Origin: Callorhinchus milii
Taxonomy: Eukaryota
Reading direction: 5' to 3'
DNA: 64,000 bases
NCBI RefSeq assembly: GCF_018977255.1
Contig: NW_024704742.1
Span: 119,166,001 to 119,230,000 of the forward strand
Part shown: piece by piece, positions 31,669-53,125 of the stretch
Numbering within the stretch: the first letter of the stretch is position 1
How the letters are laid out: each line of letters opens with the position of its first letter
Translations under genes and position numbers: made by a program
The notes under the pieces: model-generated
Told to the model about the DNA's origin: nothing
What the model saw: the letters and a program-made list of their open reading frames with translations, nothing else
The model's database searches: none

Positions 31669-53125
<21,457 letters not shown>

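Follow-up and report, generated by a model that had tools for sequence, protein, structure and literature searches.

A putative first exon for the p50-alpha isoform in the PIK3R1 gene of the chimaera Callorhinchus milii

The minus strand of a 64,000-nucleotide stretch of Callorhinchus milii DNA (hereafter the window) carries, in an intron of PIK3R1, a 16-nt sequence that is very probably the chimaera orthologue of the alternative first exon of p50-alpha. The first-pass annotation had proposed a 16-nt exon here (ATG plus 13 nt, phase 1, GTAAGT donor, A at −3) and, with it, the conservation of p50-alpha in a cartilaginous-fish genome. We read or computed each of these features from the DNA and found them as described, and the frame, the length, the donor and four of the six encoded residues argue for orthology with the bony-vertebrate exon. 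The homology of the start rests on those six residues. The coordinates of all features are given in Table 1.

Fourteen exons of the host gene, among them RhoGAP, iSH2 and SH2 exons, were mapped with proteins retrieved by search. When joined they gave 621 residues, all of which occur unchanged within the C. milii p85-alpha record (P0023). The PDB chains closest to the window exons were those of p85-alpha, with 98.9–105.9 bits versus 71.6–74.4 bits for chains named beta. The identity of the p85 part with the C. milii alpha record, together with these bit scores, identifies the gene as PIK3R1 and not PIK3R2 or PIK3R3. Residues 1–111 of p85-alpha (SH3 exon) were not found within the window. The acceptor at 36712 is preceded by a pyrimidine tract and AG. 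The last p85-specific exon extends beyond the joining point of other vertebrates (48044–48033, minus strand), which adds about six residues, and the C. milii p85 records of 732 aa include about six residues from this extended exon. Broken reverse-transcriptase-like frames and dispersed repeats lie at 4519–5325, 13880–14566, 17323–18016, 23220–24182, 28453–29491, 44636–45357, and 47187–47518; they resemble LINE/SINE remnants. The nine shared exons, from 36712 to 31669, equal in number those of human PIK3R1, for which one article describes nine shared exons and two alternative first exons, where p55-alpha, like p50-alpha, has its own promoter and its own first exon (PMC3302225). The intact chimaera gene and the shark records contradict the loss of p85-alpha in Chondrichthyes that was suggested, cautiously and from one proteome, in a 2015 phylogeny (PMC4617754).

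Table 1. Features of PIK3R1 and of the candidate p50-alpha start in the window
Feature	Position	Strand	Remarks
Putative p50-alpha first exon, coding end	41269..41284	−	ATG + 13 nt, phase 1; five codons and the first base of a Thr codon
Splice donor GTAAGT	41263..41268	−	8.7 bits; top of the eight phase-1 ATG..GT intron candidates of any length at or above the p55 donor
In-frame TGA	41321..41323	−	12 codons upstream of the ATG
TATA-consensus match	41366..41373	−	Weak, some 85 nt above the ATG; about 0.09 expected by chance in 150 nt
Possible acceptor	41384..41400	−	7.2 bits (true acceptors 7.4–12.4); would make a 116-nt internal exon
p55-alpha first coding exon	39737..39842	−	106 nt, phase 1; product 456 aa
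Conserved non-coding box	40178..40235	−	Upstream of p55 exon; 76% to amniote-like L004, E 4e-5
Conserved non-coding box	39945..40015	−	Upstream of p55 exon; 88% to L004, E 8e-20; 75% to teleost-like L003, E 2e-7
First shared exon	36610..36712	−	Pro-rich motif, nSH2 start; acceptor for p85, p55 and putative p50
Other eight shared exons	span 31669..36001	−	nSH2, iSH2, cSH2, stop
Shared exons 2–5	36001-35903, 35787-35607, 35139-35014, 34777-34635	−	
Shared exons 6–9	34287-34111, 33007-32933, 32849-32679, 31858-31669	−	
Five p85-alpha-specific exons	span 48033..53125	−	BH/RhoGAP region
p85-specific exons, coordinates	53125-53033, 52150-52076, 49686-49555, 48554-48353, 48133-48033	−	

The candidate exon is separate from the nine shared 3′ exons, lies upstream of them and is in frame with them. 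Spliced in silico to these exons it gives a product of 426 aa that starts with MHNIKT and has no internal stop, in agreement with the length first proposed; over its C-terminal 420 residues it does not differ from the end of P0023. The RhoGAP exons lie upstream of the candidate and the iSH2 and SH2 exons downstream, so the product would be without SH3 and BH and would keep nSH2-iSH2-cSH2. The ATG at 41284 has a purine at −3 (A at 41287). Because of the upstream in-frame TGA it is the first in-frame ATG, and an N-terminal extension is ruled out. The donor had been called perfect, which is true of its intron side, GTAAGT; the exon side ends in AAA, and the score falls in the middle of the range of the 13 constitutive donors of the gene (6.0–12.0 bits), from which the small scoring matrix was itself built.

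To find kin of the six-residue start we used 352 stored proteins, of which 48 had a Met at a distance of six residues from the beginning of the shared part; one unrelated model was dropped. The remaining 47 come from carnivores and alligator (inside longer models), sturgeon, eels, tarpon, carps, characins, catfish, and spiny-rayed fish. His was present at position 2 in 45 of them, Asn at position 3 in 39, Leu at position 4 in 42 and Gln at position 5 in 44, although these records are not independent and many are from carnivores. MHNLQT is the start in the records of carnivores, of alligator and of two teleosts. The starts of sturgeon and of the remaining teleosts depart from it mostly at residue 6 and match MHNIKT at three of six residues. 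MHNIKT and MHNLQT agree at four of six residues and are separated by a minimum of two base changes, and 20 of 50,694 random stretches reach the peptide score of MHNIKT; the likeness to the mammalian p50-alpha start noted by the first-pass annotation is borne out by the retrieved proteins. Judged by alignment span, PDB chains named "Isoform 3" align with fish p50 from residue 1 and full p85 chains only from residue 6.

As an isoform p50-alpha is well known, and bony-fish annotations already include it. The expectation that so short an exon would be easily missed by annotation holds only in part: RefSeq has the isoform in sturgeon, in teleosts and probably in the horn shark, although none of the eight C. 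milii records retrieved carries it. Many p50 models of spiny-rayed fish (P0062, P0064, P0167, P0168, P0172, P0175, P0334–P0341) have a conserved in-frame extension of 34–39 aa upstream of the MH start, which may be a real longer isoform.

Upstream of the candidate we searched for promoter elements with TATA and STAT consensus sequences. Six ATGs lie within 400 nt upstream of 41284, the closest at 41348, and a transcript starting about 30 nt below the TATA match would omit all six (41348 nearly so). No STAT match was found between 40282 and 45535, a point that, like the AT-rich upstream DNA, speaks against the p50-alpha reading; the window as a whole had 28 versus 22.9 expected. A bacterial promoter scan of the window was set aside as inapplicable to a vertebrate gene. 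Lower in the AT-rich intron, at a distance of 0.9 kb from the first shared exon, there is a CpG-rich patch (37601–37900) with 12 CpG and an observed/expected ratio of 1.0, versus 0.34 in the window; it is possible that this is a further promoter.

The same upstream DNA bears on a different placement of the start, on an internal exon of 116 nt that would begin at acceptor 41384 and be fed by an upstream non-coding first exon. This acceptor scores just below the true acceptors of the gene, and the frame that continues from p85 stops at 41289–41287; in a variant of this reading the exon would be spliced after the last p85 exon and end at the TGA just before the ATG, as a poison exon. However, acceptor-like sites are frequent, six of them above 3 bits occurring within 530 nt. 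In human, moreover, the exon is a first exon with its own promoter (PMC3302225, PMC6815964). We consider an internal exon improbable, and a p50-alpha first exon remains the preferred reading.

In cartilaginous fishes, the horn shark Heterodontus francisci has an isoform X3 (XP_067885544.1, 427 aa) with MHSARS in the p50 slot. Of 50,694 random four-codon stretches, 516 (1.0%) scored at least as high as MHSARS, and for this reason its support at the protein level is probable but not certain; an orthologous start is thus present at this level in bony vertebrates and probable in the horn shark. For the shark and ray cluster, 15 of 24 members were listed. The 17 listed shark and ray forms comprised 10 of p55 type, three of 401 aa whose start falls within the first shared exon, one form of 558 aa, two with unrelated starts and one p50-like form, the horn-shark X3. 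None of 49 short relatives of the horn-shark start was of p50 type, and many of them read through from the intron. Scyliorhinus torazame X3 was rejected as an orthologue: it ends in VKT, like the IKT of the chimaera, but scores only 2 versus MHNIKT. Isoform X4 of this species would, by its numbering, fall between 440 and 401 aa. Four ray p55 records (P0122, P0123, P0133, P0025) begin at the second Met and have 449 aa, seven residues fewer than the shark and chimaera forms.

No 426-aa form was among those listed for Stegostoma and Chiloscyllium (P0124, P0130, P0134), which did include one of 401 aa under two or more accessions. The p50 start has diverged in the horn shark, and carpet sharks, given the forms listed, may lack its ATG. 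In the same tentative reading the six-residue start itself would be under selection, sharks and rays may be a natural experiment in its loss, and the hexapeptide, or a DNA or RNA signal beneath it, would have a function so far unassigned. The basis of this doubtful idea is that 45 of the 47 records have His at position 2 and that Met-His-Asn is kept from the chimaera to mammals. If true, the loss of the hexapeptide would name the lineages in which to test its function.

The elasmobranch start is diverged or not among the forms listed, and no p50 or p55 form was found among the eight C. milii records, as would be expected if the chimaera exon were a true orthologue by descent that is now silent or vestigial. 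To this we give little credence. The ATG, the purine at −3, the frame, the length, the donor and four of six residues are intact, and hundreds of millions of years of neutral decay would not have spared them. The well-conserved p55 exon is likewise missing from the same eight records, so the absence of p50 there says little, and we continue to read the exon as a p50-alpha start that is probably in use.

Likeness by chance was assessed by scoring every stop-free 16-nt ATG..GT stretch for its donor strength and for the similarity of its residues 2–5 to three bony-vertebrate starts from the stored proteins; the length had been fixed in advance by the known isoform. The candidate had a peptide score of 17. 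In the 11,320-nt intron none of the 11 further candidates (12 in all) scored above 2, and in the window none of the 125 further ones (126 in all) scored above 5. Eight of 3,000 Markov-simulated introns attained the candidate's peptide score and 116 its donor score; none attained both. The MHNIKT exon with its donor is not a product of chance. That only 16 bases are involved, and that the intron has 12 candidates of this length, does little for a look-alike in AT-rich intron DNA, which is barely credible when no simulation matches both scores and the next-best peptide in the window scores 5 versus 17.

The p55-alpha exon of the same intron is 83% identical to horn-shark p55 and 46% to rat p55-gamma. 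The two non-coding boxes upstream of it have counterparts at 508–780 of L004 and at about 715–1170 of L003. The words ACGTG, GATTGG and TGATGTAA are invariant in the chimaera, amniote-like and teleost-like sequences, and they resemble hypoxia, CCAAT and ATF/CEBP elements. These sequence comparisons suggest that the boxes are probably an ancient stress-responsive p55 promoter. The conservation of the p55 exon and its boxes shows that the intron does keep ancient alternative starts.

L003 and L004 are the two animal contigs, among six loci found in a scan of metagenomes, that extend upstream of the first shared exon. The amniote-like L004 contains the p55 exon. In their first 2.5 kb, neither of the two candidates of L003 and none of the four of L004 scored above 1, and both contigs end short of the expected place. 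This fits a p50 exon that lies further upstream, as in the chimaera window; in mammals the order is p50 exon, then p55 exon. L003 keeps the p55 promoter boxes, no p55 coding exon was found at 1097–2290, and its first two shared exons are fused. A decayed p55 exon that was seen there by eye was rejected, as 368 and 483 of 500 shuffles scored as well. A match of 46323–46287 to L003 (E 0.004) was out of order and was set aside. The spiny-rayed fish lists had 405-aa forms and no p55 type among those listed.

For the chimaera isoform we propose that a promoter inside the intron preceding the nine shared exons would give a transcript whose first exon ends in the ATG and 13 bases. The donor at 41268 would be joined to the acceptor at 36712 with skipping of the p55 first exon, a junction for which the phase and the open frame are shown. 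Translation would yield a 426-aa subunit in which six unique residues are followed by the Pro-rich motif and nSH2-iSH2-cSH2, without SH3 and BH. Judging from mammalian work, this subunit would bind, stabilize and inhibit p110 like the other subunits, without N-terminal adaptor functions. p50-alpha is described as the short form of mammalian liver and muscle that replaces lost p85-alpha (PMC10454413), and purified p110-alpha as behaving alike with all five subunits (bioRxiv 10.1101/2025.10.16.682970). By analogy, a tissue-specific supply of core subunit without SH3/BH adaptor functions is the likely role in the chimaera. Understanding of PI3K itself is unchanged, given this like behavior of p110-alpha with each subunit.

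The presence of the same exon in the chimaera and in bony vertebrates dates it to the common ancestor of the two or earlier. On the best reading of the sequences the p50-alpha isoform would predate the split between sharks and bony fishes. The date in the jawed-vertebrate ancestor given by the first-pass annotation is compatible with this presence in both groups but has to be taken as a minimum age. A literature search covering few subscription papers, with the original isoform papers outside its range, brought up, among the papers listed, none that dealt with p50-alpha in cartilaginous fishes or with how old the exon is. The gain is one of annotation and of date: a probably unannotated isoform is added to the reference cartilaginous-fish gene, and the isoform switch would be an ancient design and not a mammalian one.

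The two alternative first coding exons of the window are alike in their intron, their phase 1 and their acceptor. They differ in size, as the p55-alpha exon has 35 codons and the putative p50 exon five codons and one base. The p55-type start is shared by PIK3R1 and its paralogue PIK3R3 and must be older than the PIK3R3 duplication. In contrast, the p50-type start was found only on PIK3R1, and on none of the few PIK3R3 and PIK3R2 pieces returned.

Among the closest known systems is mammalian p50-alpha (isoform 3, transcript variant 3), which likewise starts from a short first exon of its own upstream of nine shared exons and has six unique residues followed by the Pro-rich motif, four of the six being matched between the chimaera and the carnivore records. 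The chimaera has Ile-Lys at positions 4–5 where the mammal has Leu-Gln, and 426 aa versus 424, a difference that between sturgeon and human was observed as a two-residue indel between iSH2 and cSH2. Expression has been shown in mammals, whereas the chimaera isoform is predicted from the sequence. The upstream DNA is AT-rich in the chimaera (GC 0.35, no CpG island), unlike the CpG island that is given for the human p50-alpha promoter in PMC6815964.

The 426-aa RefSeq isoforms of sturgeon and teleosts (e.g., XP_033861827.1, XP_036384285.1, XP_037389280.1) are of equal length and share the Met-His-Asn start; the four fish p50 records tested were identical to the chimaera product at 384–396 of 426 residues. 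They differ from it at position 5, where such records have Gln (44 of 47) and the chimaera Lys. The extension of the spiny-rayed fish models is excluded in the chimaera by the upstream in-frame stop. The horn-shark X3, also from a cartilaginous fish, has Met-His six residues before the shared part and is identical at 407 of 426 residues, but it has one extra Met, and its start matches that of the chimaera at two of six residues and requires at least five base changes.
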